Source of the DNA: Eledone cirrhosa
Lineage: Eukaryota
Direction: 5' to 3'
Assembly (NCBI GenBank): GCA_964016885.1
Contig: OZ024752.1
Coordinates: forward strand, 38,874,001-38,938,000
Length of the DNA: 64,000 bases
A model generated the notes under the pieces. That model searched no databases. It was not told the DNA's origin and saw only the letters and a list, made by a program, of their open reading frames with translations. The translations under genes were made by a program, and so were the position numbers. Of the stretch, positions 14,841 to 62,956 are shown in pieces (the stretch's first letter is position 1; each line of letters starts with the position of its first letter).

Positions 14841-15177
14841 CAATCTGTCAATCCAAATAATGGTGACAATATGGTGACAATATATGCACTTGCCACCTCT
14901 GCCTAACTCTTCAAGAATATTTTCCTTCTCATCATCTCATTACTGAGTGAGCTTAGATACCTTGCTCATAACATTTAACAGTCTAGTTTAATCACACAGT
15001 GATTAAACTAGGCTGTTAAACAACAAGAAATGCCTCTCCTGATAAGTATGAAATCTTCCAAATGTGTGTCCATAACTTGTTGCTATCACTATAATGATTA
15101 AAATAACGCCAATATTTTCAGTCAGTTGTAAGCTTAACTCTTTAGCATTTAAACCAGTCATATCCAGCAGGAATTCT

Positions 15178-18100
15178 CCACTAACAACACAATCAATACC
15201 ACTAACAACACAGTCAACTTCACTAACAACACTGTCAACACCACTAACAACACAATCAACACCATTAACAACACAATCAACACCACCATTAACAACACAA
15301 TCAACACCACTAACAACACAGTCAACTTCACTAACAACACAATCAAAACCATTAACAACACAATCAACACCACTAACAGCAGAGTCAACACCATTAACAA
15401 CACAATCAACACCATTAACAACACAATCAACACCACCATTAACAACACAATCAACACCACTAACAACACAGTCAACTTCACTAACAACACTGTCAACACC
15501 GCGAACAACACAATCAACACCATTAACAACACAATCAAAACCATTAACAACACAATCAACACCACTAACAGCAGAGTCAACACCACTAACAACACAATCA
15601 ACACCATTAACAACACAATCAACACCACCATTAACAACACAATCAACACCACTAACAACACAGTCAACTTCACTAACAACACAATCAAAACCATTAACAA
15701 CACAATCAACACCACTAACAGCAGAGTCAACACCATTAACAACACAGTCAACTTCACTAACAACACTGTCAACACCGCGAACAACACAATCAACACCACT
15801 AACAACACAATCAACATCACTAACAACACAATCAACACCACTAACAACACAATCAACACCACTAACAACACAATCAACACCACTAACAACACAATCAACA
15901 CCACTAACAACACAATCAACACCACTAACAACACAATCAACACCACTAACAACACAATCAACATCACTAACAACACAATCAACACCACTAACAACACAAT
16001 CAACACCACTAACAACACAATCAACATCACTAACAACACAATCAACACCATTAACAACACAATCAACACCACTAACAGCAGAGTCAACACCACTAACAGC
16101 AGAGTCAACACCACTAACAACACTGTCAACACCACTAACAACACAATCAACATCACTAACAACACAATCAACATCACTAACAACACAATCAACACCACTA
16201 ACAACACAATCAACACCACTAACAACACAATCAACACCACTAACAACACAATCAACACCACTAACAACACAATCAACACCACTAACAACACAATCAACAC
16301 CACTAACAACACAATCAACATCACTAACAACACAATCAACACCACTAACAACACAATCAACACCACTAACAACACAATCAACATCACTAACAACACAATC
16401 AACACCATTAACAACACAATCAACACCACTAACAGCAGAGTCAACACCACTAACAGCAGAGTCAACACCACTAACAACACTGTCAACACCACTAACAACA
16501 CAATCAACACCACTAACAACACAATCAACATCACTAACAACACAATCAACACCACTAACAACACAATCAACACCACTAACAACACAATCAACACCACTAA
16601 CAACACAATCAACACCACTAACAACACAATCAACACCACTAACAACACAATCAACACCACTAACAACACAATCAACACCACTAACAACACAATCAACATC
16701 ACTAACAACACAATCAACACCACTAACAACACAATCAACACCACTAACAACACAATCAACATCACTAACAACACAATCAACACCACTAACAACACAATCA
16801 ACACCACTAACAACACAATCAACATCACTAACAACACAATCAACACCATTAACAACACAATCAACACCATTAACAACACAATCAACACCACTAACAGCAG
16901 AGTCAACACCACTAACAGCAGAGTCAACACCACTAACAACACTGTCAACACCACTAACAACACAATCAACACCACTAACAACACAATTAACACCGCTAAC
17001 AACACAATCAACATCACTAACAACACAATTAACACCACTAACAACACAGTCAACTTCACTAACAACACAATCAACACCGCGAACAACACAATCAACACCA
17101 CTAACAGCAGAGTCAACACCACTAACAACACAATTAACACCACTAACAACACAGTCAACTTCACTAACAACACAATCAACACCGCGAACAACACAATCAA
17201 CATCACTAACAACACAATTAACACCACTAACAACACAGTCAACTTCACTAACAACACAATTAACACCATTAACAACACAATCAAAACCACTAACAACACT
17301 GTCAACACCACTAACAACACAATCAACACCACTAACAACACAATTAACACCGCTAACAACACAATCAACATCACTAACAACACAATTAACACCACTAACA
17401 ACACAGTCAACTTCACTAACAACACAATCAACACCGCGAACAACACAATTAACACCACTAACAACACAGTCAACTTCACTAACAACACAATCAACACCAT
17501 TAACAACACAATCAACACCATTAACAACACAATCAAAACCATTAACAACACAATCAAAACCATTAACAGCAGAGTCAACACCACTAACAACACTGTCAAC
17601 ACCACTAACAACACAATCAACACCGCGAACAACACAATCAACACCATTAACAGCAGAGTCAACACCACTAACAACACAATCAACACCACTAACAACACAA
17701 TCAACACCACTAACAACACAGTCAACTTCACTAACAACACAATCAACACCATTAACAACACAATCAACACCACTAACAACACAGTCAACTTCACTAACAA
17801 CACAATCAACACCATTAACAACACAATCAACACCACTAACAACACAATCAACACCATTAACAACACAATCAACACCATTAACAACACAATCAACACCATT
17901 AACAACACAATCAACACCATTAACAACACAATCAACACCATTAACAACACAATCAACACCATTAACAACACAATCAACACCATTAACAACACAATCAAAA
18001 CCATTAACAACACAATCAACACCATTAACAACACAATCAACACCATTAACAACACAGTCAACACCACTAACAACACAATCAACACCATTAACAACACAAT

Positions 18101-18911
18101 CAAAACCATTAACAACACAATCAACACCACTAACAGCAGAGTCAACACCACTAACAACACAATCAACACCACTAACAACACAATCAACACCATTAACAAC
18201 ACAATCAACACCACTAACAACACAATCAACACCGCGAACAACACAATCAACACCATTAACAACACAATCAAAACCATTAACAACACAATCAACACCATTA
18301 ACAACACAATCAACACCATTAACAACACAATCAAAACCATTAACAACACAATCAACACCACTAACAACACAATCAACACCACTAACAACACAGTCAACTT
18401 CACTAACAACACAATCAACACCGCGAACAACACAATCAACACCACTAACAACACAATCAACACCATTAACAACACAATCAAAACCATTAACAGCAGAGTC
18501 AACACCACTAACAACACAATCAACACCACTAACAACACAATCAACACCATTAACAACACAATCAACACCATTAACAACACAATCAACACCACTAACAGCA
18601 GAGTCAACACCACTAACAACACAGTCAACTTCACTAACAACACAATCAACACCACTAACAACACAATCAACACCATTAACAACACAATCAACACCATTAA
18701 CAACACAATCAACACCACTAACAGCAGAGTCAACACCACTAACAACACTGTCAACACCACTAACAACACAATCAACACCACTAACAACACAATCAACATC
18801 ACTAACAACACAATTAACACCACTAACAACACTGTCAACACCACTAACAACACTGTCAACAGCGCTAACAACACAATCAACACCACTAACAACACAATCA
18901 ACACCACTAAC
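15178..18911. repeat. 21-bp minisatellite (CCACTAACAACACAATCAACA)n, about 177 units
   Basis: Direct reading; almost G-free on the + strand; recurring variants (gcagag, ctgtca, gcga, 24-bp ccacca). Flanked by a 157-bp direct duplication. Confidence 0.97.
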
Positions 18912-19020
18912 AAGAAATGTCTCTCCTGATAAGTATGAAATCTTCCAAATTTGTGTCCATAACTTGTTGCTATCACTATAATGATTAAAATAATGCCAAT
19001 ATTTTCAGTCAGTTGTAAGC

Positions 19021-19221
19021 TTAACTCTTTAGCATTTAAACCGGTCATATCCAGCAGGAATTCTCTCCCCTCTTTCTGTTGAAACCGGCCATAACCAGTC
19101 GCTCATACTTATGTTAAGGTATTGTTCTCAAAATCTTGTAGATTCCATATTGTGTGAGATAAAGTGTTTACCATGAAAATACAATAGTAAATAGAGAGTA
19201 ATGTAAATGCTAAACGGTTAA
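19021..19221. mobile_element. piggyBac-like TTAA MITE
   Basis: ttaactctttagcattta ... taaatgctaaacggttaa; body shared with other copies. Confidence 0.8.
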
Positions 19222-22917: not shown

Positions 22918-23248
22918 TTTCATTGATAATGTTGTGGTGAGTGAATTACATTGCTGAAGAAGAGGAGGTTGAGGGAGAGAAGGTTGAGATATAATAAATA
23001 ACAGCTTTCAAATTGGGTTTCTGAAGTCTCTAGCTCTTTCTCCCTTTACCCCACCCCCTCTCTCTCTCTATATATATATTTATATGATTTTTAAAGCGAT
23101 GAAATACCAGTGGGGGTTGGAAGATCACTGATGAAGGACTGGTTTTGTTCGTATGCAACCCATGTGCAACCACGCAGCACTCCATTTTTCTTATATATGT
23201 ATATATATATATATATACACTGCAAAGTGGTCATGTGGGTGTCATGAC

Positions 23249-26017
23249 AAAAAGCACCCAGACCACATTGTAAAGTGGTTGTGTAGGGGTCACGGCTAAA
23301 AGCACCCAGTACTCACTGTAAAGTGGTTGTGTAGGGGTCACGGCTAAAAGCACCCAGTACTCACTATAAAGTGGTTGTGTAGGAGTCACAGCTAAAAGCA
23401 CCCAGTACTCACTGTAAGGAGGTTGTGTAGGGGTCACAGCTAAAAGCACCCAGTACTCACTGTAAAGTGGTTGTGTAGGAGTCACGGCTAAAAGCACCCA
23501 GTACTCACTATAAAGTGGTTGTGTAGGAGTCACAGCTAAAAGCACCCAGTACTCACTGTAAAGTGGTTGTGTAGGAGTCACGGCTAAAAGCACCCAGTAC
23601 TCACTGTAAAGTGGTTGTGTAGGAGTCACGGCTAAAAGCACCCAGTACTCACTGTAAAGTGGTTGTGTAGGAGTCACAGCTAAAAGCACCCAGTACTCAC
23701 TGTAAAGTGGTTGTGTAGGAGTCACAGCTAAAAGCACCCAGTACTCACTGTAAAGTGGTTGTGTAGGAGTCACGGCTAAAAGCACCCAGTACTCATTGTA
23801 AAGTGGTTGTGTAGGAGTCACAGCTAAAAGCACCCAGTACTCACTGTAAAGTGGTTGTGTAGGAGTCACAGCTAAAAGCACCCAGTACTCACTGTAAAGT
23901 GGTTGTGTAGGAGTCACGGCTAAAAGCACCCAGTACTCACTGTAAAGTGGTTGTGTTGGAGTCACAGCTAAAAGCACCCAGTACTCACTGTAAAGTGGTT
24001 GTGTAGGTGTCACGACAAAAAGCACCCAGCACATACTGTAATGTGGTTGTGTAGGAGTCATGGCTAAAAGCACCCAGTACTCACTGTAAAGTGGTTGTGT
24101 AGGAGTCACGGCTAAAAGCACCCAGTACTCACTGTAAAGTGGTTGTGTAGGAGTCACAGCTAAAAGCACCCAGTACTCACTGTAAAGTGGTTGTGTAGGA
24201 GTCACAGCTAAAAGCACCCAGTACTCACTGTAAAATGGTTGTGTAGGAGTCACGGCTAAAAGCACCCAGTACTCACTGTAAAGTGGTTGTGTAGGAGTCA
24301 CAGCTAAAAGCACCCAGTACTCATTGTAAAGTGGTTGTGTAGGAGTCACTGCTAAAAGCACCCAGTACTCACTGTAAAGTGGTTGTGTAGGAGTCTCGGC
24401 TAAAAGCACCCAGTACTCATTGTAAAATGGTTGTGTAGGAGTCTCGGCTAAAAGCACCCAGTACTCATTGTAAAATGGTTGTGTAGGAGTCTCGGCTAAA
24501 AGCACCCAGTACTCATTGTAAAATGGTTGTGTAGGAGTCACGGCTAAAAGCACCCAGTACTCACTGTAAAGTGGTTGTGTAGGAGTCACGGCTAAAAGCA
24601 CCCAGTACTCACTGTAAAGTGGTTGTGTAGGAGTCACGGCTAAAAGCACCCAGCACACATTGTAAAGTGGTTGTGTAGGAGTCACGGCTAAAAGCACCCA
24701 GTACTCACTGTAAAGTGGTTGTGTAGGAGTCACGGCTAAAAGCACCCAGTACTCACTGTAAAGTGGTTGTGTAGGAGTCACAGCTAAAAGCACCCAGTAC
24801 TCACTGTAAAGTGGTTGTGTAGGAGTCACGGCTAAAAGCACCCAGTACTCACTGTAAAGTGGTTGTGTAGGAGTCACAGCTAAAAGCACCCAGCACACAC
24901 TGTAAAGTGGTTGTGTAGGAGTCATGGCTAAAAGCACCCAGTACTCACTGTAAAGTGGTTGTGTAGGAGTCACGGCTAAAAGCACCCAGCACACATTGTA
25001 AAGTGGTTGTGTAGGAGTCACGGCTAAAAGCACCCAGTACTCACTGTAAAGTGGTTGTGTAGGAGTCACAGCTAAAAGCACCCAGCACACATTGTAAAGT
25101 GGTTGTGTAGGAGTCACGGCTAAAAGCACCCAGTACTCACTGTAAAGTGGTTGTGTAGGAGTCACGGCTAAAAGCACCCAGTACTCACTGTAAAGTGGTT
25201 GTGTAGGAGTCATGGCTAAAAGCACCCAGCACACATTGTAAAGTGGTTGTGTAGGAGTCACGGCTAAAAGCACCCAGCACACATTGTAAAGTGGTTGTGT
25301 AGGAGTCACAGCTAAAAGCACCCAGCACACATTGTAAAGTGGTTGTGTAGGAGTCACAGCTAAAAGCACCCAGCACACATTGTAAAGTGGTTGTGTAGGA
25401 GTCACAGCTAAAAGCACCCAGCATACATTGTAAAGTGGTTGTGTAGGAGTCACAGCTAAAAGCACCCAGTACTCACTGTAAAGTGGTTGTGTAGGAGTCA
25501 CGGCTAAAAGCACCCAGCACACATTGTAAAGTGGTTGTGTAGGAGTCACAGCTAAAAGCACCCAGTACTCACTGTAAAGTGGTTGTGTAGGAGTCACGGC
25601 TAAAAGCACCCAGCACACATTGTAAAGTGGTTGTGTAGGAGTCACAGCTAAAAGCACCCAGTACTCACTGTAAAGTGGTTGTGTAGGAGTCACGGCTAAA
25701 AGCACCCAGTACTCACTGTAAAGTGGTTGTGTAGGAGTCACGGCTAAAAGCACCCAGCACACATTGTAAAGTGGTTGTGTAGGAGTCACAGCTAAAAGCA
25801 CCCAGTACTCACTGTAAAGTGGTTGTGTAGGAGTCACGGCTAAAAGCACCCAGCACACATTGTAAAGTGGTTGTGTAGGAGTCACAGCTAAAAGCACCCA
25901 GTACTCACTGTAAAGTGGTTGTGTAGGAGTCACAGCTAAAAGCACCCAGTACTCACTGTAAAGTGGTTGTGTAGGAGTCACGGCTAAAAGCACCCAGCAC
26001 ATACTGTAATGTGGTTG
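23249..26017. repeat. 48-bp minisatellite, about 58 units, expanded inside a SINE (host about 23217-26165)
   Basis: Unit aaaagcacccagtactcactgtaaagtggttgtgtaggagtcacggct. The array runs directly into the SINE 3' part (ttaggaagcgcatccagctgtagaaa...ggacgttaaatgataatgat). Confidence 0.97.
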
Positions 26018-26609: not shown

Positions 26610-26806
26610 TAATAGGAACGAGTAGGACCCCGACGGCTGAGCTCAAGCCGTTTCGACGGCTAATTCTAGTCTAGAATTAGCCATCGAAACAGCTTGAGCT
26701 CAGCTGTCGGGGTCCTACTCGTTCCTATTACCCACTCTACTACCCTAAGTATTGAGTACTTTGGTGCGTTATGGTCCACTTGGTTCCTTACCACATTTCC
26801 TTCGTT
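26610..26806 (-). mobile_element. Palindromic element (120-bp hairpin plus 76-bp unique arm) in (TA)n; probable Penelope-like terminus
   Basis: taataggaacgagtagg...cctactcgttcctatta inverted repeat; second copy in opposite orientation at 56331-56524. Confidence 0.65.
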
Positions 26807-26863
26807 ATATATATATAATATATATATATATAATATATATATATATATAAATATATATATATA

Positions 26864-41847: not shown

Positions 41848-42374
41848 CACATGGCTTAGTGGTTAGAGCATTGGCCTTGCAATCAAAAGGCTGTGAGTCA
41901 GGCCGAGTGGTGTGTTGTTTCCTTGAGCAAAACACTTTATTTCACATCACTCAGCTGTAGAAATGAGATGATCATTCCACTGCAAAGTGGTTGTGGAGGT
42001 GCCACGGCAAAAAAGCACCCAGCACTCACTGTAAATGAGGTTGGTGTTAGGAAGGGCATCCAGCTGTAGAAAACAAGCCAGAATCAGTTCCCGTCCCACC
42101 CTTGCCAGCAGGGAAAACCAGACGTAAAATGATGATGATGATGATATATGTATGTATAGAAGGGGGTATTTAATTTGTTGGAAATCCTACAAATATAAAT
42201 ATAAATGTTTATAACTGATTAAATAAATGGTTGTTTTTGAATTATTTACATATTCATTTGCATATTCACCCATAAGTTTGAAAAATCCCTAATACATTTC
42301 CATTATCCAAAGAATATCCAACTGATAAGGTATGATTTTCCTGGGTATGTCTCTATTTATAAAACAAATTTTGT

Positions 42375-42435
42375 ATTTTATCTGAAGAAAGTGTACCAAA
42401 GTCTTTTGGTACCCTTGAAATATATATAATAAAAT
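42375..42435 (+). ncRNA. Minimal type-I hammerhead ribozyme motif (canonical core)
   Basis: attttat-CTGAAGA-aag t gtaccaaa gtct tttggtac c ctt-GAAA-tatata-TA-ataaaat: stem I, core, stem II, palindromic stem III, UA cleavage site. Confidence 0.8.
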
Positions 42436-42632
42436 AAATATGATTTTATAAATATAGTTTCCATTTATTTAATATCATTGTATATAAATATATATATATG
42501 TAATAAGAATATTTATATTTTTATATGTTTGATACAACTATAAATATTGAGGGTAGTACTAAGTACTAGCTGGTTACCGGTATGTATATATATATATATC
42601 CCAGTGATAAAATTTGCTCCGAACGAACTACC

Positions 42633-42723
42633 CATGTCTGAAGGAACCTGCAGCCGTAGAATCAGCCAGATCCATACAGGGACCGTGTCTCGAGCTATCT
42701 GCCGGCGAAACAATTGTAACACG
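42633..42723 (+). ncRNA. Hammerhead-like motif with apparent 50-nt insertion in the core
   Basis: catgt-CTGA-[50 nt]-GA-gct atctgcc ggc-GAAAC aatt GTA-acacg, followed by AATAAA. Confidence 0.5.
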
Positions 42724-42768
42724 CAATAAATTGAGTCCAGATGCATCACTGATTTTTCGTTTTCTTTA

Positions 42769-42812
<44 letters not shown>

Positions 42813-43181
42813 TAATATAACAGATTAAAGTTTAAGCAAAGAATCGCTAATTTAAAGTTTAAGCAAAGAATCGCCTCTTTGGATTTTAGTCTTCAATTTT
42901 ATTATTATTACTATATATATATATATATATAAATGAAAATATAGAAATTATTGTGAGCAAGAAGCCAACAGTATTTCATAATATATAAGTGACTATAACG
43001 TCAAAATGGAAAATAATTCAAACTCAATTAAAAAAAAAAATATATATATATATATAAAAATATATTACCATGCTATATTATTATAATGGATGTCAACCCA
43101 CTGTGGGTCAATATATACATATGTTTCTATAGGTCTCTTGTGTTGAAAAGGAGGTCAAGTATGTTAAAAATCACTGAATAA

Positions 43182-43230
43182 TTGCTCCGAAGACTCCAAA
43201 CCTCGGTTTGGAAGAAACAATTGTAAGCAA
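43182..43230 (+). ncRNA. Minimal type-I hammerhead motif with CCGAAGA (U4C) core
   Basis: ttgct-CCGAAGA-c tccaaacc tc ggtttgga a-GAAAC aatt GTA-agcaa, followed by AATAAA. Confidence 0.68.
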
Positions 43231-43639
43231 ATAAATGATTTAAACAGAACTTTGTTTCATGTAATCTCTATATATAAAAATATATATATAGATATATATA
43301 TAAAAATAGATATATATATAAAAAAAAATATATATATATATATATTAAAAAAAAAAAAAATATATATATATGAGAGAAAGAGAAAGAGAATGTGTGTGTG
43401 TGATGCAAAACTGAAAACAGTTAAAATCAATGCATAAGTTAGGAAGGAACATTTAAAGCCCACAGCTCCCCCCCCCCCCCCCCCCCCAGGTGCCTAGAGT
43501 AGAAATAATTATTATGAATGAGGCAAATATGTAAACATTTTATGAAAGGTAAACCAGTTGAGAAAAAAAAAAAACTTAAAAAACCTGTATAGTTTCCCAT
43601 AATATACAAAACCTTTTCACATACTTTATATCATTATAA

Positions 43640-44973: not shown

Positions 44974-46407
44974 TATATTGGCATCAATAGCAATTCAGCT
45001 ATTTCCCTACTTTTCTCTTTTATGATGCTTTAATGCTTATCTATGTTATTTATTCATTTAGAAAGAGGGCGGCTTGTTTAATAGCATTGTTCTTCCAATA
45101 CCTCCTACAGAATTCATTTTCACAGTATCAGGTTTTATTGACAGTAATGGAATGACAGGTTTAGAAGTAGCAAATTAAAAAGTCAGTAACTTATAATGTA
45201 TATTGTATATATGAACTGTTCATTACCATATCTCTAATGAAAGACACTGTTGAGGGTTTTCAAATAATTTTGTCAAAATAATCAAGAATTTGGAGATTTA
45301 TATATATACAACTGACATTGTCAGTATTAACAAAGGTCTTACATTATATTAACAAAGGTCTTACATTATATTAACAAAGGTCTTACATTATATGAACTGT
45401 TCATTACCATATCTCTAATGAAAGACACACTGTTGAGGGTCTTTAAATAATTTTGTGAAAATAATCAAGAATTTGGAGAGATTTAAATATATAACTGATA
45501 TTCTCAGTATTAACCCTTTAGCATCTACATTACTCTATATATACTATTGTATTTTTGTGATAAAGACTCTATCTTACATAATTATCTCACATAATATCGA
45601 ATCTATGAGATTTTGATAGTATTTATTTTGAGAACAATACCTTAACATCAGTATGAGTGGCCAGTTATGAACGGTTTGAACAGAAAGAGGTAAGAGAATT
45701 CTGGCCAGATCTGGTCGATTTAAATGCTGAAAGGGTTAACAAAGGTCTTCCATAAAATTATGATGGAAGAGCGTTAAATTTAAATGCTTTAGAATAAAGT
45801 TTTTTCTCACAGAAACAGAGGTGGTTTTAGACAGTTTGGTATTGAAAAGGTTAAAAAAAAGCAGTAACAGAACATTATCTCAATGTAATCGACATGAAAT
45901 ATATTTTCTGAGGTATCACAGAGAGTTATAATGCTTCATCATTCATTTTCATCATTTCATTTTACGTCCGCTTTTTCCCTGCTTGCAAGGGCGGGACGGG
46001 AACTGATTCTGGCTTGATTTCTACAGCTGGATGCCCTTCCTAACACCAACCTCATTTACAGTGAGTGCTGGGTGCTTTTTTGCCGCGGCACCTCCATAAC
46101 CACTTTGCAGTGGAATGATAGGGATCCCAGTCCCTATCATCTCACTTCTACAGCTGAGTAAACTTGAGCAATGTGAAATAAAGTGTCTTGCTCAAGGAAA
46201 CAACGCATCACCCGGTCTGAGAATTGAACTCACAACCTTTCGATTGCAAGACCAATGCTCTAACCACTAAGCCTTGTGCCTATTGTTACAAAGTGTCTAA
46301 TGTGGAATTGTGACTGGGTTGCTAACTAAGAAAAGATTCCCCCTTTTTTTTTCTTCTGATAAAGAGATGAGTTGAAAATAATTTATCAAATACAATTATC
46401 CAGCTCG

Positions 46408-49400
46408 TCTCCCTCGCCATCTTCTGGGTCAATGTCTTCTCCATCCTGATGGCCAGCCAGGACTACAAGGTGGAGTGTCTGTTCCACCATGTCTCCCTCG
46501 CCATTCTCTGGAGTAATGTCTTCTCCATCCTGATGGCCAGCCAGGACTACAAGGTGGAGTGTCTGTTCCTCCATGTCTCCCTCACCATTCTTTGGAGTAA
46601 TGTCTTCTCCATCCTGATGGCCAGCCAGGACTACAAGGTGGAGTGTCTGTTCCTCCATGTCTCCCTCACCATTCTCTGGAGTAATGTCTTCTCCATCCTG
46701 ATGGCCAGCCAGGACTACAAGGTGGAGTGTCTGTTCCTCCATGTCTCCCTCACCATTCTCTGGAGTAATGTCTTCTCCATCCTGATGGCCAGCCAGGACT
46801 ACAAGGTGGAGTGTCTGTTCCTGCATGTCTCCTTCACCATTCTCTGGAGTAATGTCTTCTCCATCCTGATGGCCAGCCAGGACTACAAGGTGGAGTGTCT
46901 GTTCCTCCATGTCTCCCTCGCCATTCTCTGGAGTAATGTCTTCTCCATCCTGATGGCCAGCCAGGACTACAAGGTGGAGTGTCTGTTCCTGCATGTCTCC
47001 TTCACCATTCTCTGGAGTAATGTCTTCTCCATCCTGATGGCCAGCCAGGACTACAAGGTGGAGTGTCTGTTCCTCCATGTCTCCCTCACCATCCTCTGGA
47101 GTAATGTCTTCTCCATCCTGATGGCCAGCCAGGACTACAAGGTGGAGTGTCTGTTCCTCCATGTCTCCCTCACCATCCTCTGGAGTAATGTCTTCTCCAT
47201 CCTGATGGCCAGCCAGGACTACAAGGTGGAGTGTCTGTTCCTCCATGTCTCCATCACCATCCTCTGGAGTAATGTCTTCTCCATCCTGATGGCCAGCCAG
47301 GACTACAAGGTGGAGTGTCTGTTCCTCCATGTCTCCCTCACCATTCTCTGGAGTAATGTCTTCTCCATCCTGAATGCCAGCCAGGACTACAAAGTGGAGT
47401 GTCTGTTCCTCCATGTCTCCCTCGCCATTCTCTGGAGTAATGTCTTCTCCATCCTGACGGCCAGCCAGGACTACAAGGTGGAGTGTCTGTTCCTCCATGT
47501 CTCCCTCGCCATTCTCTGGAGTAATGTCTTCTCCATCCTGATGGCCAGCCAGGACTACAAGGTGGAGTGTCTGTTCCTCCATGTCTCCCTCACCATTCTC
47601 TGGAGTAATGTCTTCTCCATCCTGAATGCCAGCCAGGACTACAAAGTGGAGTGTCTGTTCCTCCATGTCTCCCTCGCCATTCTCTGGGTCAATGTCTTCT
47701 CCATCCTGATGGCCAGCCAGGACTGCAAGGTGGAGTGTCTGTTCCTCCATGTCTCCCTCACCATTCTCTGGAGTAATGTCTTCTCCATCCTGATGGCCAG
47801 CCAGGACTACAAGGTGGAGTGTCTGTTCCTCCATGTCTCCTTCACCATTCTCTGGAGTAATGTCTTCTCCATCCTGATGGCCAGCCAGGACTACAAGGTG
47901 GAGTGTCTGTTCCTCCATGTCTCCCTCACCATCCTCTGGAGTAATGTCTTCTCCATCCTGATGGCCAGCCAGGACTACAAGGTGGAGTGTCTGTTCCTCC
48001 ATGTCTCCTTCACCATTCTCTGGAGTAATGTCTTCTCCATCCTGATGGCCAGCCAGGACTACAAGGTGGAGTGTCTGTTCCTCCATGTCTCCCTCACCAT
48101 TCTCTGGAGTAATGTCTTCTCCATCCTGATGGCCAGCCAGGACTACAAGGTGGAGTGTCTGTTCCTCCATGTCTCCCTCATCATTCTCTGGGTCAAAGTC
48201 TTCTCCATCCTGATGGCCAGCCAGGACTACAAGGTGGAGTGTCTGTTCCTCCATGTCTCCCTCTCCATTCTCTGGAGTAATGTCTTCTCCATCCTGATGG
48301 CGAGCCAGGACTACAAGGTGGAGTGTCTGTTCCTCCATGTCTCCCTCACCATTCTCTGGAGTAATGTCTTCTCCATCCTGATGGCCAGCCAGGACTACAA
48401 GGTGGAGTGTCTGTTCCTCCATGTCTCCCTCACCATTCTCTGGAGTAATGTCTTCTCCATCCTGATGGCCAGCCAGGACTACAAGGTGGAGTGTCTGTTC
48501 CTCCATGTCTCCCTCATCATTCTCTGGGTCAAAGTCTTCTCCATCCTGATGGCCAGCCAGGACTACAAGGTGGAGTGTCTGTTCCTCCATGTCTCCCTCA
48601 CCATTCTCTGGAGTAATGTCTTCTCCATCCTGATGGCCAGCCAGGACTACAAGGTGGAGTGTCTGTTCCTCCATGTCTCCCTCGCCATTCTCTGGGTCAA
48701 TGTCTTCTCCATCCTGACGGCCAGCCAGGACTACAAGGTGGAGTGTCTGTTCCTGCATGTCTCCCTCACCATTCTCTGGGTCAAAGTCTTCTCCATCCTG
48801 ATGGCCAGCCAGGACTACAAGGTGGAGTGTCTGTTCTTCCATGTCTCCCTCATCATTCTCTGGAGTAATGTCTTCTCCATCCTGATGGCCAGCCAGGACT
48901 ACAAGGTGGAGTGTCTGTTCCTCCATGTCTCCCTCACCATTTTCTGGAGTAATGTCTTCTCCATCCTGATGGCGAGCCAGGACTACAAGGTGGAGTGTCT
49001 GTTCCTCCATGTCTCCCTCACCATTTTCTGGAGTAATGTCTTCTCCATCCTGATGGCGAGCCAGGACTACAAGGTGGAGTGTCTGTTCCTCCATGTCTCC
49101 CTCACCATTCTCTGGGTCAATGTCTTCTCCATCCTGATGGCCAGCCAGGACTACAAGGTGGAGTGTCTGTTCCTCCATGTCTCCCTCACCATTCTCTGGG
49201 TCAATGTCTTCTCCATCCTGATGGCCAGCCAGGACTACAAGGTGGAGTGTCTGTTCCTCCATGTCTCCCTCACCATTCTCTGGGTCAATGTCTTCTCCAT
49301 CCTGATGGCCAGCCAGGACTACAAGGTGGAGTGTCTGTTCCTCCATGTCTCCCTCACCATTCTCTGGAGTAATGTCTTCTCCATCCTGATGGCCAGCCAG

Positions 49401-50479
49401 GACTACAAGGTGGAGTGTCTGTTCCTCCATGTCTCCCTCACCATTCTCTGGAGTAATGTCTTCTCCATCCTGATGGCCAGCCAGGACTACAAGGTGGAGT
49501 GTCTGTTCCTCCATGTCTCCCTCACCATTCTCTGGAGTAATGTCTTCTCCATCCTGATGGCCAGCCAGGACTACAAGGTGGAGTGTCTGTTCCTCCATGT
49601 CTCCCTCACCATTCTCTGGAGAAATGTCTTCTCCATCCTGATGGCCAGCCAGGACTACAAGGTGGAGTGTCTGTTCCTCCATGTCTCCCTCACCATTCTC
49701 TGGAGTAATGTCTTCTCCAACCTGATGGCCAGCCAGGACTACAAGGTGGAGTGTCTGTTCCTCCATGTCTCCCTCACCATTCTCTGGAGAAATGTCTTCT
49801 CCATCCTGATGGCCAGCCAGGACTACAAGGTGGAGTGTCTGTTCCTCCATGTCTCCCTCACCATTCTCTGGAGAAATGTCTTCTCCATCCTGATGGCCAG
49901 CCAGGACTACAAGGTGGAGTGTCTGTTCCTGCATGTCTCCCTCACCATTCTCTGGAGTAATGTCTTCTCCATCCTGATGGCCAGCCAGGACTACAAGGTG
50001 GAGTGTCTGTTCCTCCATGTCTCCTTCACCATTCTCTGGAGTAATGTCTTCTCCATCCTGATGGCCAGCCAGGACTACAAGGTGGAGTGTCTGTTCCTCC
50101 ATGTCTCCCTCACCATTCTCTGGAGTAATGTCTTCTCCATCCTGATGGCCAGCCAGGACTACAAGGTGGAGTGTCTGTTCCTCCATGTCTCCCTCGCCAT
50201 TCTCTGGAGTAATGTCTTCTCCATCCTGATGGCCAGCCAGGACTACAAGGTGGAGTGTCTGTTCCTCCATGTCTCCCTCACCATCCTCTGGAGTAATGTC
50301 TTCTCCATCCTGATGGCCAGCCAGGACTACAAGGTGGAGTGTCTGTTCCTCCATGTCTCCTTCACCATTCTCTGGAGTAATGTCTTCTCCATCTTGATGG
50401 CCAGCCAGGACTACAAGGTGGAGTGTCTGTTCCTGCATGTCTCCCTCGCCATTCTCTGGGTCAAAGTCTTCTCCATCTT
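46408..50479. repeat. 84-bp minisatellite, about 48 units, open frame on both strands
   Basis: Unit gtctccctcaccattctctggagtaatgtcttctccatcctgatggccagccaggactacaaggtggagtgtctgttcctccat. Confidence 0.97.
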
Positions 50480-50494
50480 GTCTGCTGAGACGAG

Positions 50495-50755
50495 TTTCCA
50501 AGGCATTAAGTGACTTAGAGTATGAGACTCCTCCCTGGACTAGTCCATCGCCAGATTAAACCTCCATCTATTGCTGGTACTCGTTTTCAGCCGAGTATAT
50601 TGGAGCACTAGGCCACACACCTCCACTGAGTATACTGGAGCAACATGAAATGAAGTGTTTTGCTCAAGGACACAACACACAACCCAGGAATCGAACCCAT
50701 GACATTATGATTGTTAGACCAACGGCCTTACCACTAGGCCACATGTCTCCACTAC
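50495..50755 (-). mobile_element. tRNA-derived SINE (family D; partial relative about 34215-34335)
   Basis: Minus strand tggcctagtggtaagg A box, ggttcgattcc B box, tccttgagcaaaacacttcatttc, gcgatggactag; abuts the 84-bp array. Confidence 0.75.
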
Positions 50756-53765: not shown

Positions 53766-53899
53766 GCAGAAGTTATATTTAATTTGTTGGGATTCAACAA
53801 GCTTAAAAGTTTTATAACTGATATAAAGCACTCAACAGTTTACTGGAGTAAATATTCAATATATTAATAAATGGAAACTATATTTATAAAACCATAATT

Positions 53900-53962
53900 A
53901 TTTTATTATATATATTTCAAGGGCAACCAAGGCAATTTTGGTGCACTTTCATCAGATAAAAT
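53900..53962 (-). ncRNA. Minimal type-I hammerhead motif (left arm of palindrome)
   Basis: Minus strand attttat-CTGATGA-aagtgcaccaaaattgccttggttgccctt-GAAA-tatata-TA-ataaaat. Confidence 0.78.
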
Positions 53963-54106
53963 ACAAAATATGTTTTATAAATGTTGACATACCCGTAGAA
54001 AAACAACCTTGACAGCAGCTGAAGGTTTGCTGGATAGTCCAGCAAACCTTCAACCGTCAAGGTTGTTTTTCTACGGGTATGTCAACATTTATAAAACATA
54101 TTTTGT

Positions 54107-54171
54107 ATTTTATCTGATGAAAGTGCACCAAAATTGCCTTGGTTGCCCTTGAAATATATATATAATAAAAT
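54107..54171 (+). ncRNA. Minimal type-I hammerhead motif (right arm of palindrome)
   Basis: attttat-CTGATGA-aag t gc accaa aattgcc ttggt t gc c ctt-GAAA-tatatata-TA-ataaaat. Confidence 0.78.
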
Positions 54172-54316
54172 AAAAAGTAATTATGGTTTTATAAATATAG
54201 CTTCCATTTATTAATATATTGTATATATATATAATTGGTGTGGGATGCTTACAGAGCAGAGTATAATATCACATAAGAAACGGAGAATCAGTGGTGCTAC
54301 GAATAAGATTTATTAA

Positions 54317-54412
54317 ACATATTACAATCGTTTCTCTGGCGACCAGCTCGAGGAGGCACGATCGATGCAATGATCAAACCTGACTCTGAAATCGCAAGAT
54401 CCTCGGATATGT
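54317..54412 (-). ncRNA. Hammerhead-like motif with apparent 53-nt insertion in the core
   Basis: Minus strand acatat-CCGA-[53 nt]-GA-g ctgg tcg ccag a-GAAAC gatt GTA-atatgt, then AATAAA; perfect 6-bp stem I. Confidence 0.52.
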
Positions 54413-54450
54413 CTCGATTCTACGAAGCAGAGTTTCCAAATATATATATA

Positions 54451-55235
54451 TACCTTACCCAATTACACCTCTCAAAGACAATGACACACGACCGTGACTT
54501 CTGGCGTCACGCAGTAATACAGAGTACCCGACCTCCCATGGGTACATGCTCAAGCATATAAACAATATGCCCCCACCGCAAGGTGGTCGTGGAGGTGCCA
54601 CGGCAAAAAAAGCACCCAGCCCACACTGTAAAGTGGACGTGTAGGCGCCACGAAAAAGCACCCAGCACTCACTGTAAATGAGGTTGGTGTTAGGAAGGGC
54701 ATCCAGCTGTAGAAATCAAGCCAGATCAGTTCCTGTATGAGCAAGGCATGGTCAGCCGACCAGACACTGCCCACAACAGGACAACCCGTCTAACCCATGC
54801 TAGCGTGGAAGAACGGACGTAAAACGGTGATGATGATGATGATACCTTACCCAATTACACCTCTCAAAGACAATGACACACGACCGTGACTTCTGGCGTC
54901 ACGCAGTAATACAGAGTACCCGACCTCCCATGGGTACATGCTCAAGCATATAGACAATATGCCCCCACTGCAAAGTGGTCGTGGAGGTGCCACGGCAAAA
55001 AAAGCACCCAGCCCACACTGTAAAGTGGACGTGTAGGCGCCACGAAAAAGCACCCAGCACTCACTGTAAATGAGGTTGGTGTTAGGAAGGGCATCCAGCT
55101 GTAGAAATCAAGCCAGATCAGTTCCTGTATGAGCAAGGCATGGTCAGCCGACCAGACACTGCACACAACAGGACAACCCGTCTAAGCCATGCTAGCGTGG
55201 AAGAACGGACGTAAAACGGTGATGATGATGAATGA
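54451..55235 (+). repeat. 392-bp tandem duplication (LINE-3'-like piece plus SINE 3' half)
   Basis: taccttacccaattacacc... starts at 54451 and 54843; ORF-track duplicates are offset by 392. Confidence 0.93.
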
Positions 55236-56073
55236 TGATGATATATATCTTCCTGGGAAGATCGTGGAGACAAAATCCTCACGCACACCTTCCAGCAGAA
55301 GCAACTGTCTCTAATTGATCCAGCAGGATCCACAAGCGAGACCAACCAAGCTCATGGATGTTATCCAACCATCTTGCTCAAGGTTTACTCCTGGATCTCC
55401 TGCTAGTTGGGTTTGCCTGAAAAAGCTGTCCAGCGATTCTTTCCTTAGACATTCTGAGTGTAGTATCGGAGCTGTGATTTCTCAATTCGGAAAAGTGGCT
55501 CTACCTGGAACGACTCTGATCTTCGAGCTACGCTCTCTATCGAGTAACGTTACTCCAAAGACCCCTGGGAGGGATACCGATCATATTCTTTCGGTCATTA
55601 CCCAAGATTCACGACCATAGGTAAAAGTTGGTACAAATACCGAATTGAAGATAGCGAACTTGTCTTTTACATCTACTTCTCTTCTGATGATCGAATGCTG
55701 AAGCTGGCGCATTACTGCATATATATATAGTGAAGGCGTGTGGCTGAGTGGTTAGAGAATTGGATTCGCAATCGTAAGGTTGTGAGTTCGATTCCTGGAC
55801 CAGGCGATGCGTTATGTCCTTGAGCAAGACACTTTATTTCATGTTGCTCCTTCTACCTGGAGTTGCGACCCGATAGATAGTATTAGCAATTGGAAAGACC
55901 AACGGAAACATTGTTCCCTCGGTCCGATTTGACGAAAGTCGATCGTTACTATATATATATATATATATATATAAACGGAAAAAATGAAACGAAATTTCGT
56001 TTCTTACTCTTAGTACGGCTGTTACTTAAATATAAGTATGTACAATACGTTCAACAATCTGACAGGAAGGTAT

Positions 56074-56116
56074 ACGTTGCTGACGATAGCTAATAAGCTT
56101 GAAACTAGTACAGCGT
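56074..56116 (+). ncRNA. Minimal type-I hammerhead motif
   Basis: acgttg-CTGACGA-t agct aata agct t-GAAAC ta GTA-cagcgt; stem III is the palindrome ACTAGT. Confidence 0.75.
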
Positions 56117-56330
56117 TCCTTTGTCAGTGTTGAACAAACGAGCAACGATGGTTGCTGGACACTACGGCTTAATACGGGATGTTTGTTTACAAACATACCG
56201 AGCATTATAATAAATGTTCGGTGAATCCATACGTACATATATATATATATGTGTGCATGTATGTATATATATATACATACTACTGTACGTCTGTATACAT
56301 ATGTATGTACGTGTACATATATATATATAT

Positions 56331-56521
56331 AACGAAGGAAATATGGTAAGGAACCAGGTGGACCATAACGCACCAAAGTACTCAATACTTGAGGTAGTAG
56401 AGTGGGTAATAGGAACCAGTAAGACCCCGACAGCTGAGCTCAAGCCGTTTCGACGGCTAATTCTGTCCAGAATTAGCCGTCGAAACGGCTTGAGCTCAGC
56501 TGTCGGGGTCTTACTGGTTCC

Positions 56522-56524
<3 letters not shown>
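56331..56524 (+). mobile_element. Second copy of the palindromic element, in (TA)n
   Basis: Unique arm aacgaaggaaatatggtaagg... plus hairpin ataggaaccagtaag...cttactggttcctat. Confidence 0.65.
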
Positions 56525-56578
<54 letters not shown>

Positions 56579-58139
56579 AGGTACTTGTGGTACTGTATAT
56601 ATATATATGTGTGTGTGTGTGTATATATAAAGGTACTCGTGGTACTGCATATATATATATAATATATGTGTGTGTGTGTGTATAAAGGTACTCGTGGTGA
56701 TTAGGTGAGTGCTTAAACATGAAATTAACGATAATGGAGAATATAAACAAAAATAACGGGTTTGTTTGGTTTCAACAAGGAAACGTTTCAACTAACCAGA
56801 TGTTGCTCTTTTTTTAAGACACACGTATTTTCAGAATAAAATTATTTTCCCATATACAAGAAGCGTTCAATAAATTTTGTTTGCAAAGATAATCATTTCA
56901 TAATAAATACAACTTAAACTGTATTTTTAACCACACGCCCAATTTCTTTTTTTTATTGATACATATATGTTTGCATTTGGAATGCCATATCCATACTATG
57001 CAAACAAAATATGCTTAACGCTTGACATATATGTAAGAATAATTCTATTTTAAAGGCAGGTGTATTACAAATAGGTTAAGACAGAAGTGCGCTAAAACGA
57101 AACTTATTCGCATCTATACCTTAAAAAAAGCGAAGTTAATTGTTAAACTTCATACGTACATAGACTCATACAAATATTAAAAAAAATTACACGTAGGGCT
57201 AAGCACTCACATGAATAATTTCAGTTCAACTCAAAGTTACATAAGACCCTGTAAATATGATTATGTGTGGGAGTGTGTATGTATGTATGTTAATTATGTT
57301 CTTTCTCATTTCAGGTCAATCTTTTCAGTTAAAAATCTTTCGAGAAATATGGATCTAGAGTTAACTGGATAATTACGATATAAATTTTATATATATAATA
57401 TAATATAATTGTTTCTACTTTTGGCACAAGATCAGCAATTATCCCAGTGCATTACTGGTAAATATAATATAATATATATAAATATTTTTATTAGCTCATA
57501 TATATTATGAGCTAATAAAAATATTTATTTCGTTCTTGAAATATAACTAGAGAAAGTCCGAATGTTGCCAAGACTAAACCTAACCTTATAAGGGAAAATC
57601 ATTTTTTTTTTTACAAACAATATACATAATTCAGATACCAGTTCTGTCAAATGAAACTTTGTTGCTTCGCACTAATTTCAATGGAAGGATATAATAAGAT
57701 TGTAAGATGAAATTGCCAGTTTGATGTAAATGAAGTGAAATACCAACTTGAGAATCGAAACGCGCTTAAATAAGATAAAGTAACGCATAATTTTTCTCTG
57801 AACTATAGAACGATTCCTACTTCTAAATCAAATCGACGAGTTCGTCCATTCATCCCCTATAAGTATTTGTTTTCTTAAAAGTCCTGAAATTAAAAGCGAA
57901 AAGCGCGCAATTGCTGCTGGGTAGTGTTTAAACGTTTTGCAATTAACTGTAGTTCTTACTAGAAGCAAAACTATATAGAATCGTCATAATAAAGAAAGTG
58001 ACTTTGAAAGATTAATAAGCTTACAAGTCGAATAACTATATACTTTATTAATTATCTTATTTTTTGTGGTTTGGAAATTTAGTCTTTTATATTTTAATTT
58101 CTTTGCAATATTTTATTTCATTTTAATTGTTTGTTTCGA

Positions 58140-58277: not shown

Positions 58278-59056
58278 GTTAGTGTGTTGTTATTGTTTAG
58301 TCACATATCAGCTCCGATCAAAAGGCGCTCCAGCAATGACCGCACCTCCTTTTTTTAAACATAATGTAATTATGTCCTTTATATATATATATGCAGAGGT
58401 TATATTTAATTTAAAAATATATATATATATATATATATAAGAGTAGGGTGTGATTTGTAGGATATTTGGTTGTATATAGGCTCCTGTGTGAATCGGCTGG
58501 GTTAGATGATTAGCATTGTGGTCTTCCAGTTGATATAGTAATATTATATATTCACACACAGCCACAAAAGAAAGGAATGGTTTAGTTGTGACTTTGTATT
58601 TTGCAAACCATTGTTTTCAACTGTTTTCATAATAAACTTTTCCGTATTTATTGATTTCTGATAATAAACATAAAGCGTGATATTTGTAGGTAAAAAGGAA
58701 ATGTGTTTGTGTGATATTTATGTCTTTCCCAATGACAGTAAATAAATTACGTATAATAGCTGCAATTGAAAGTCTAAACCAAGTTACTGGCTCAATTTTT
58801 CGTATGTTTACTTTTATAGCACCATGACTGCGGACTTCTAAGTGTGATACTCTTCTATCTTCTACATCCACAGCACTGCTAACACCATAAGCGTATTGCT
58901 CCCATCATTTTGGGAGATGCAGACGTTCATAATTTTCAGACAAAATAGACAAATTATTTCGACAACATTTTTTCGGGGGTGTGTGCAGATGCACCCCCAC
59001 CAATTCGCTACTACCTAACATAAATAAATGTAAAAAAATCAAATAACAGAAGAAAG

Positions 59057-61043: not shown

Positions 61044-61458
61044 GTAAGTCACATTTTGAAATCTTTATGGTTTGGTATTACCTGTTTTGGGATTTTTTTT
61101 TTTATAAGATTTTAAAATTATTCTAACCCTTTCAGGACTGCATTTCTAATGAAATACACTCTATTTTAATTTACTACTGAAGAATTTTGAGGGATTAACT
61201 AAAATTGTCAATTATTTCATTACTGAGATCGTAACTTAATCCTTTAGCATTTACATTACTCTATATTTACTATTGTATTTTCGGGGTTTACCTCACGTAA
61301 TTGTCTCACATAATATCTTTACCTCACGTAATTATCTCACATAATATCTTTACCTCACATAATTATCTCACATAATATCTTTACCTCACGTAATTATCTC
61401 ACATAATATCGAATCTGAGATTTTGATTTTAGTTATTTTGAGAATAGTATGAGTGGTT

Positions 61459-62650
61459 GGTTACAGCCGGTTTGAACAGAAAGAGGTGAGAGAATTCTGG
61501 CCGGATATGGCCGGTTACAGCTGGCTTGAACAGAAAGAGGTGAGAGAATTCTGGCCGGATATGGCCGGTTACAGCTGGCTTGAACAGAAAGAGGTGAGAG
61601 AATTCTGGCCGGATATGGCCGGTTACAGCTGGCTTGAACAGAAAGAGGTGAGAGAATTCTGGCCAGATATGGCCGGTTACAGCTGGCTTGAACAGAAAGA
61701 GGTGAGAGAATTCTGGCCAGATATGGCCGGTTACAGCTGGCTTGAACAGAAAGAGGTGAGAGAATTCTGGCCGGATATGGCCGGTTACAGCTGGCTTGAA
61801 CAGAAAGAGGTGAGAGAATTCTGGCCAGATATGGCCGGTTACAGCTGGCTTGAACAGAAAGAGGTGAGAGAATTCTGGCCGGATATGGCCGGTTACAGCT
61901 GGCTTGAACAGAAAGAGGTGAGAGAATTCTGGCCGGATATGGCCGGTTACAGCTGGCTTGAACAGAAAGAGGTGAGAGAATTCTGGCCGGATATGGCCGG
62001 TTACAGCTGGCTTGAACAGAAAGAGGTGAGAGAATTCTGGCCAGATATGGCCGGTTACAGCTGGCTTGAACAGAAAGAGGTGAGAGAATTCTGGCCGGAT
62101 ATGGCCGGTTACAGCTGGCTTGAACAGAAAGAGGTGAGAGAATTCTGGCCGGATATGGCCGGTTACAGCTGGCTTGAACAGAAAGAGGTGAGAGAATTCT
62201 GGCCAGATATGGCCGGTTACAGCTGGCTTGAACAGAAAGAGGTGAGAGAATTCTGGCCGGATATGGCCGGTTACAGCTGGCTTGAACAGAAAGAGGTGAG
62301 AGAATTCTGGCCGGATATGGCCGGTTACAGCTGGCTTGAACAGAAAGAGGTGAGAGAATTCTGGCCGGATATGGCCGGTTACAGCTGGCTTGAACAGAAA
62401 GAGGTGAGAGAATTCTGGCCAGATATGGCCGGTTACAGCTGGCTTGAACAGAAAGAGGTGAGAGAATTCTGGCCGGATATGGCCGGTTACAGCTGGCTTG
62501 AACAGAAAGAGGTGAGAGAATTCTGGCCGGATATGGCCGGTTACAGCTGGCTTGAACAGAAAGAGGTGAGAGAATTCTGGCTGGATATGGCCGGTTACAG
62601 CTGGCTTGAACAGAAAGAGGTGAGAGAATTCTGGCCGGATATTGCTGGTT
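61459..62650. repeat. 54-bp minisatellite, about 22 units, inside a TTAA MITE (about 61236-62668) in SSBP1 intron 2
   Basis: Unit ggttacagctggcttgaacagaaagaggtgagagaattctggccggatatggcc equals the subterminal segment of the MITE; MITE ends flank the array. Confidence 0.97.
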
Positions 62651-62956
62651 TAAATGTTAAATGGTTAATGTAAAGTTCTTATATAAAATTATGTTGGAAG
62701 ATTTTAATTTAAATTGGAAACCTTTAAAATTGGTGCCTTTATTTCATAATACCAGAGCCGAATTTGGCCGGGCTGGTAACTAAAGGGCTAAATATTAGTG
62801 TGTCATAGTTTGCTTGAAGCATTGTATAAAGTGTATCATATGGTGTTTTATTAGAAACTACCTTCATAGTCACCCTATGAACCTTTTAGCTAGCCCTCAT
62901 ATATATGATATTGGGATAAATTTAATGCTTTCTCTTTTATTTCTTTCTGTTCTTAG

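Follow-up and report, generated by a model that had tools for sequence, protein, structure and literature searches.

The three hammerhead motifs at positions 42375, 42633, and 43182 of the window (the whole 64-kb stretch of DNA that was analyzed) are probably the 3' ends, that is, the pseudo-LTR part, of three Penelope-like element (PLE) families, each with a predicted type I hammerhead and each inserted in succession into (TA)n by a TA-targeting Penelope reverse transcriptase (RT)/endonuclease. The cluster is real but mostly ordinary, and the families found here add to the known association of PLE 3' ends with dimer-type hammerheads and TA targeting. As to the donors, coding PLEs and short non-autonomous derivatives of them are about evenly probable. 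The window is AT-rich, animal-type DNA, dense in (TA)n, (CA)n, and minisatellites, and many copies of a SINE that has a tRNA head and an (ATG)n tail are present, which we take to resemble octopus SINEs. The copy evidence for the four families, designated A to D, is drawn solely from this window.

Hammerhead motifs in two clusters

Two descriptors combined recovered seven hammerhead motifs, H1 to H3 in a first cluster and H4 to H7 in a second. Direct reading and a script placed the motifs of the first cluster where the first-pass annotation had reported them, all three on the plus strand; 42375, 42633, and 43182 are the helix I starts of H1, H2, and H3, and their cores begin at 42382, 42638, and 43187. 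The second pile-up that had been described at 53.9 to 56.5 kb was also recovered, with cores at 53955 (minus strand), 54114 (plus), 54406 (minus), and 56080 (plus), which belong to H5, H4, H6, and H7, respectively. GAAA, an A15.1-U16.1 pair, a UH cut site, and a palindromic loop III are present in all seven motifs, and the core is closed by helix I (3 to 8 bp) and helix II (at least 4 bp). The core reads CUGANGA in H1, H4, H5, and H7 and CCGA in H3 and H6, and it contains one extra base in H2. H1 to H3 share a layout in which the core is followed by helix II, GAAA, six palindromic nucleotides, TA, and lastly the 3' arm of helix I. The consensus published for the minimal hammerheads (min-HHR) of PLEs is CUGANGAH with a G10.1-C11.1 pair (PMC4209133), whereas the motifs found here are without that pair, having A-U in H1, A.C in H2, C.A in H3, and U-A in H6 at this position. 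In File S2 of PMC8557442, helix II likewise starts with a pair other than G10.1-C11.1 in some of the Hydra-clade entries.

The motifs are commoner than in dinucleotide-shuffled sequence. A strict descriptor found six motifs with a loop III palindrome of at least 4 nt in the window versus none in each of 100 block-wise dinucleotide shuffles, and a relaxed descriptor that allows one extra core base found six motifs, H2 included, versus one match in 200 shuffles (mean, 0.005); these figures are somewhat generous because both descriptors were written after the motifs had been seen, with C allowed at position 4. The strict descriptor misses H2 (42638) and the relaxed descriptor misses H7 (56080). 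A seventh match to the strict descriptor, at 35775 on the minus strand, is without loop III and was treated as a chance match.

The Rfam hammerhead models gave no match at an E value of ≤1 on the whole window and none at an E value of ≤10 on three sub-regions. Seven such motifs in 64 kb escape Rfam, and ribozyme counts in such genomes are therefore likely too low. The lack of Rfam support would also fit a reading of the motifs as chance patterns of AT-rich microsatellite DNA, as would the TATATA loop III of H1 in its TA-rich setting. This reading is, however, largely refuted by the shuffle tests. Against it also stand the further copies of families A and B within the window and the compensatory changes in helix II of family A and between H2 and H6. 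We regard it as exceedingly improbable.

Each motif of the first cluster had been described as soon followed by AATAAA, and we found that this signal starts 4, 6, and 4 nt past the predicted cut in H1, H2, and H3, respectively, and 8 nt past it in H6. Five of the seven motifs have AATAAA 4 to 8 nt past the predicted cut, H5 (53955) and H7 (56080) being without it; 1.2% of window positions have AATAAA as near, a figure that is raised by the AT-rich surroundings. The distance from the predicted cut to a TA tract of at least 10 nt is 60 nt for H1, 54 nt for H2, and 55 nt for H3. It is 54 to 60 nt for H1 to H4 and 54 to 142 nt for all seven motifs, versus a median of 1,257 nt for random positions in the window, about 10% of which lie within 127 nt. 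These distances bear out the proposal that the elements repeatedly landed in (TA)n. Six insertion events fall into two tight groups, and equally tight grouping arose in 0.13% of random draws from 66 merged TA tracts, a test that is post hoc because the window was chosen for its pile-up.

Families and their copies in the window

Self-comparison and shuffled local matches agree with the earlier assignment of the motifs of the first cluster to three separate families. The family A element end that carries H1 (42319 to 42490, plus strand) is 86% identical over 162 nt to 54010 to 53852 and 81% identical over 186 nt to 54051 to 54233, so that the copies with H1, H4, and H5 are 81 to 86% identical over 160 to 190 nt. 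H1, a type I hammerhead found by both descriptors (42374 to 42436, plus), has a CTGAAGA core at 42382, a helix I of 8 bp, loop III TATATA, and a predicted cut after 42428. Its 3' part reads GAAA-TATATA-TA, and its AATAAA (42433 to 42438, plus) overlaps the 3' arm of helix I. Read from the alignment, helix II of H1 differs from that of H4 and H5 by one compensatory change, U-A/C-G.

The other two copies of family A form a fold-back insertion at 53766 to 54230, on both strands, with H4 at a distance of 11.7 kb from H1. The inverted arm contains H5 (core at 53955, minus) and a tail of about 85 nt, the center lies near 54037, and the direct arm contains H4 (core at 54114, plus). The direct arm ends in TA, and the tail is one-sided, on the inverted arm. 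An inverted piece of the family A 3' tail was also found upstream of the direct copy with H1 (42160 to 42225, minus); it is 74% identical over 58 nt to 53776 to 53827, where the inverted arm of the second cluster has its tail, and the local match score of this piece was equaled in 0 of 500 shuffles. The pieces at 42226 to 42320, 42515 to 42600, and 43055 to 43180 were not assignable to an inverted arm; one TA-run match apart, at least 26 of 500 shuffles equaled their scores. A fold-back or tandem layout with a one-sided tail was not seen for families B, C, and D in the window.

Smaller pieces of family A and one element of similar layout occur elsewhere. A 24-nt piece of the family A tail stands alone between two TA tracts at 58389 to 58412. 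At 41741 to 41793, a 28-nt inverted copy of a SINE head adjoins the terminal 25 nt of family A, after which comes (TA)26; the SINE head copied is that at 41849 to 41877, across the (TA)n tract, and the insertion cuts off a transposase fragment at 41740. This piece has the appearance of a PLE insertion of very small size, the 5' part of which would have been copied from the target flank by a template switch. A 200-nt element is present between (TA)n tracts in two copies that are 93% identical (56325 to 56524 and 26612 to 26812). It consists of a near-perfect 57-bp fold-back and a one-sided 78-nt tail, a layout like that of the family A fold-back, and its center is identical in both copies. The descriptor scan found no hammerhead core in this element.

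The family B element end with H2 (42600 to 42772, plus) lies between two (TA)n tracts. It can be aligned end to end with the copy that carries H6 (54235 to 54440, minus), and it is 71% identical over 77 nt to 54352 to 54278; the copies align throughout, and the significant collinear local match is confined to the 3' half. In H2 (42633 to 42723, plus), the core, CTGAAGGA, starts at 42638 and contains one extra base; helix II is longer by about 45 nt, loop III is CAATTG, and the predicted cut lies after 42718. Its helix I consists of 3 bp plus 1 after a mismatch, its 3' part reads GAAA-CAATTG-TA, and its AATAAA (42725 to 42730, plus) is followed by a T-rich stretch. H6 has the core CCGAGGA at 54406, a helix I of 8 bp, a long helix II, and loop III CGATTG. 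Helix II of family B measures about 60 nt. The starts of the two copies, 33 to 38 nt before the core, differ by about 5 nt at most (n = 2), and these similar 5' limits hint at either a short defined unit or a preferred stop point.

The first-pass annotation had described H2 as having a split core, and this claim was not sustained. As a real split-core hammerhead, H2 would have a small hairpin inserted between CUGA and GA and would thereby form a four-way junction; its CTGA is indeed followed by a short self-complementary stretch, and GCCG...CGGC occurs later, right before GAAA. Its relative H6, however, has an uninterrupted core, and the alignment of the two cores gives H2 one extra base only, with T at position 4. 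With H6 as the sole source of the structure, 12 pairs of helix I and the outer part of helix II were compared: between H2 and H6, 4 were changed on both sides with pairing retained, 6 were unchanged, and 2 were A.C mismatches in H2. This compensatory count of 4 was reached by 32 of 500 shuffles, and slid registers gave 0 to 1. On 13 pairs, P was 0.003 with random placement of substitutions and 0.23 with the differing columns held fixed; for two sequences only, the covariation is suggestive. The covarying register of helix II is the one directly after CTGAAGGA, and in folding of the helix II domain this register was also the lowest-energy one (−14.3 kcal/mol versus −9.5 kcal/mol for the GCCG/CGGC register). 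From the alignment, the covariation, and the lowest-energy fold, we infer that the core halves of H2 are separated by an extended helix II, about 45 nt longer, a trait common to H6, and we consider a split core very unlikely. H2 itself has probably decayed.

Families C and D are represented by H3 and H7, and self-BLAST found no second copy of either in the window. H3, a type I hammerhead (43182 to 43230, plus), has the core CCGAAGA at 43187, in agreement with the CCGA core that had been reported for it. This core carries the U4C change and is accompanied by a helix I of 5 bp, a helix II of 7 bp, loop III CAATTG, and a predicted cut after 43225. The 3' part of H3 reads GAAA-CAATTG-TA, its AATAAA lies at 43230 to 43235 (plus), and the TA tract begins at about 43280. 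The sequence that H3 has in common with H2 is the GAAA-palindrome-AATAAA block only. H7 (56050 to 56135, plus) has the core CTGACGA at 56080, an extended helix I, and loop III CTAG. Of the seven motifs, it comes nearest to canonical animal type I hammerheads, with its bulged extended helix I and 4-nt palindromic loop III.

Relation to Penelope-like elements

PLE ends carry min-HHR type I hammerheads with a palindromic loop III in their pseudo-LTRs (PMC4209133, Cervera and de la Pena 2014). The activity of these ribozymes is low even as dimers, which form via the palindromic helix III, and they occur mostly as single dispersed copies and sometimes as opposite-strand pairs (PMC4209133). The motifs described here share with them the palindromic loop III, the dimer dependence (predicted here), the mostly single dispersed copies, the opposite-strand pairs 100 to 700 bp apart, the many families per genome, and the AU-rich flanks. 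PLE copies are mostly 5' truncated and often have an inverted copy and a one-sided tail (PMC8557442); tandem or inverted 5'-truncated copies with a one-sided tail, a layout of EN+ PLE clades in general, are matched by family A in its fold-back at 53766 to 54230 and its inverted tail piece at 42160 to 42225. TA targeting by hammerhead-bearing PLEs has already been published (PMC8557442, section 11), and 26 of the 27 Hydra families listed in File S2 of that paper are marked (TA)n. PLEs also tend to insert into or beside earlier PLE copies (PMC6765202). In one octopus genome, 190 families of Penelope-like elements account for 6.83% of the sequence, in an account whose relevant sections leave ribozymes unmentioned (PMC13282606).

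The anatomy of H1 to H3 is closest to that of the Hydra clade of PLEs, as far as the latter is described in the pertinent parts of PMC8557442. Shared features are a type I hammerhead a few tens of nucleotides from the 3' end, a near-palindromic helix III of the form GAA-AC..GT-H, and insertion into (TA)n, and the clade is listed there for octopus (Hydra-1_Obim). The hammerhead of Penelope-2_NV in the same source, for instance, has a helix III of this type, acaa-gt-ttgt-a. This Hydra-clade hammerhead anatomy (File S2, PMC8557442), together with the fold-back and tail at 53766 to 54230, supports the link to PLEs that the first-pass annotation had drawn. There are also differences. All of the hammerheads listed for the Hydra clade have a CTGA core and a short helix II, whereas CCGA occurs in two motifs here and helix II of family B reaches about 60 nt. 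The hammerhead lies 54 to 60 nt from the 3' end in H1 to H4 versus about 35 to 50 nt past the cut in three published Hydra consensus sequences, as counted by eye (PMC8557442). Compared by eye, the ends of the families found here differ from Hydra-1_Obim and are unlike the octopus Hydra or Naiad consensus ends given in that source. Finally, the Hydra clade has one open reading frame (ORF) comprising an RT, with DKT and RWK motifs, and, at the C terminus, a GIY-YIG domain lacking CCHH, and no such gene is attached here.

Consistent with the earlier statement that no RT or GIY-YIG coding sequence is recognizable nearby, no remnant of a PLE RT or GIY-YIG domain was found in the window, either by Pfam on 20 of the 85 open frames of at least 90 amino acids or by a six-frame motif scan. 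Because no such remnant was found, the link to PLEs is one of anatomy only; a missing PLE ORF is expected for 3'-end stubs. The only RT match in the window from Pfam on the 20 frames lies at 27519 to 28289. Judged by its motifs, it is presumably an RTE-type LINE, and it was rejected as the PLE source.

Short motifs of the window were looked for in the supplementary files of PMC8557442, PMC4209133 (those other than file 1), and PMC13282606, and none turned up there as a hammerhead. A pattern scan of metagenome contigs gave one match, in a prokaryotic coding region; scans of prokaryote genomes gave three matches, without hammerhead helices when inspected by eye, and then none; and two scans of viral contigs gave none. 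Animal repeats are not expected in any of these collections. The sequencing-run listing comprised 21 runs, of which three runs of one sample accounted for just under half of the words and the others for small shares; no RNA run was listed.

If the motifs are PLE 3' ends, a TA-targeting PLE endonuclease would nick the TA tract, and reverse transcription would start about 55 to 60 nt past the hammerhead cut, just beyond AATAAA and the T-rich stretch, in which case the template would be uncut at that copy of the ribozyme. Each insertion would lay down 170 to 300 nt, sometimes with a fold-back, and the TA left on both sides would provide new targets, leading to pile-ups. In the donor, a tandem or multimeric transcript would contain two hammerheads of the same family, which would pair via the palindrome, cut, and release unit-length RNA. 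That the copies end about 55 nt past the cut constrains models in which cleavage itself would generate the 3' end for insertion.

The motifs may instead be solo monomers of non-LTR retrozymes, which would have spread via circular RNAs from tandem arrays elsewhere and borrowed PLE or other enzymes for insertion only. Like these elements, the units found here are short, non-coding, and monomeric, with a type I hammerhead and kinship to PLE pseudo-LTRs (PMC7229834; bioRxiv 10.64898/2026.07.22.740005). Unit sizes of 170 to 300 nt fit the reported 170 to 400 nt (PMC7229834), monomers are common and dispersed in such families (bioRxiv 10.64898/2026.07.22.740005), and the near-coincident starts of the two family B copies would also be in keeping with a defined unit of this kind. 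However, the defining feature of non-LTR retrozymes is a tandem array whose units each contain a hammerhead, and no tandem unit was found in the window. In addition, every motif lies 54 to 142 nt from a TA-bounded end, and the family A fold-back with its tail is a PLE layout (PMC8557442). We therefore judge retrozyme monomers to be an unlikely source, while noting that this reading partly overlaps the PLE explanation because bioRxiv 10.64898/2026.07.22.740005 derives retrozymes from PLE pseudo-LTRs.

Predicted activity, core variants, and other repeats

Folding predicted that helix III of the monomer has only 2 bp. The active tandem homodimer was the predicted lowest-energy fold for H1, H3, and H5, and it lay above the lowest-energy fold by 0.2 kcal/mol for H7, 4.3 kcal/mol for H6, and 18.2 kcal/mol for H2. 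The unconstrained dimer fold of H3 took the double-hammerhead shape, with a penalty of 0.0, and the H6 dimer contains two G.U wobbles. In all six motifs tested, the active dimer was predicted to be 7.6 to 13.9 kcal/mol better than two active monomers; H2 was predicted to misfold even as a dimer. No same-family, same-strand partner lies near any motif in the window. With same-family dimers as the only active form predicted, lone copies are probably inactive, and the single copies stranded by insertion would be mostly silent.

Rescue of H2 by a cross-family dimer with H3 was also considered and was rejected, since helix I fails to form: the two motifs were predicted to share a perfect 8-bp helix III but to form only 1 bp of helix I per site. 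Because helix I fails across families in these predictions, no mutual activation would be expected between neighbors of different families. This bears on the idea that the host has kept the cluster as a transcript-ending cassette, in which three ribozymes on one strand would each be paired with a polyadenylation signal. The common plus orientation of H1 to H3 and the AATAAA close behind each would speak for this idea. Three of three on one strand is nevertheless a 1-in-4 outcome by chance, the second cluster is of mixed orientation, and H2 has two broken pairs in addition to its predicted misfolding. No host gene was identified beside the cluster. Taken with the predicted failure of cross-family dimers, these points make a host-kept cassette highly improbable.

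Three motifs would fail the published '^cuganga' descriptor (PMC4209133), namely, H3 and H6 with U4C and H2 with its extra base. The U4C variant is known from a viroid, with activity that is reduced but sufficient, and an insertion after A6 is a natural hammerhead variant of low activity (PMC3088659, Perreault et al. 2011). These core variants, U4C and A6a, are the same changes as those found here, but the sections of that paper dealing with them draw no tie to PLEs or to an animal repeat family. At one or two copies each, the core and helix II variants may be products of decay. A literature search found neither the CCGA core, present here in two unrelated motifs, nor a long conserved helix II like that of family B. 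A study by Lunse, Weinberg, and Breaker (2017, RNA Biol), which reportedly deals with PLE hammerhead variants, may already describe U4C or long-helix-II forms.

A more tentative possibility, to which we give less than even weight, is that U4C is fixed in whole high-copy PLE-derived families of the lineage and that family B combines it with a conserved, roughly 45-nt extension of helix II in a non-autonomous, (TA)n-inserting unit of about 170 to 210 nt. Such families would constitute an abundant dimer-cleaving class missed by CUGANGA descriptors and Rfam. As family traits, U4C and the long helix II would provide natural high-copy tests of the core changes tolerated by dimer hammerheads, and they would then also bear on the open question of the role of PLE hammerheads.

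Other repeats were observed in the window. A decayed transposase with a QQDSAPCH motif extends from about 40900 to 41740 (plus), where it ends; it is presumably Tc1/mariner-like, and two frames tested gave no Pfam match at an E value of ≤0.01. RTE-type LINE 3' fragments lie at 26880 to 28290 (minus) and 55250 to 55710 (minus). In the former, a Cys cluster that resembles a PHD finger (Pfam PHD, E = 6e−6) comes after an RT domain, and the fragment has an (ATG)n end like that of the local SINEs. Long minisatellite-like tracts at 15000 to 19100, 23200 to 26000, 46370 to 50550, and 61430 to 62670 contain open frames of 400 to 1,390 codons on both strands; the open frame at 46371 in one of these tracts had no Pfam match. 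A direct duplication of about 390 nt that includes SINE 3' parts occupies 54395 to 55240, with starts near 54454 and 54846 as judged by eye. At 56575 to 56700, three tandem copies of a word of about 22 nt, with TA/CA microsatellite between them, are perhaps repeated element tails.
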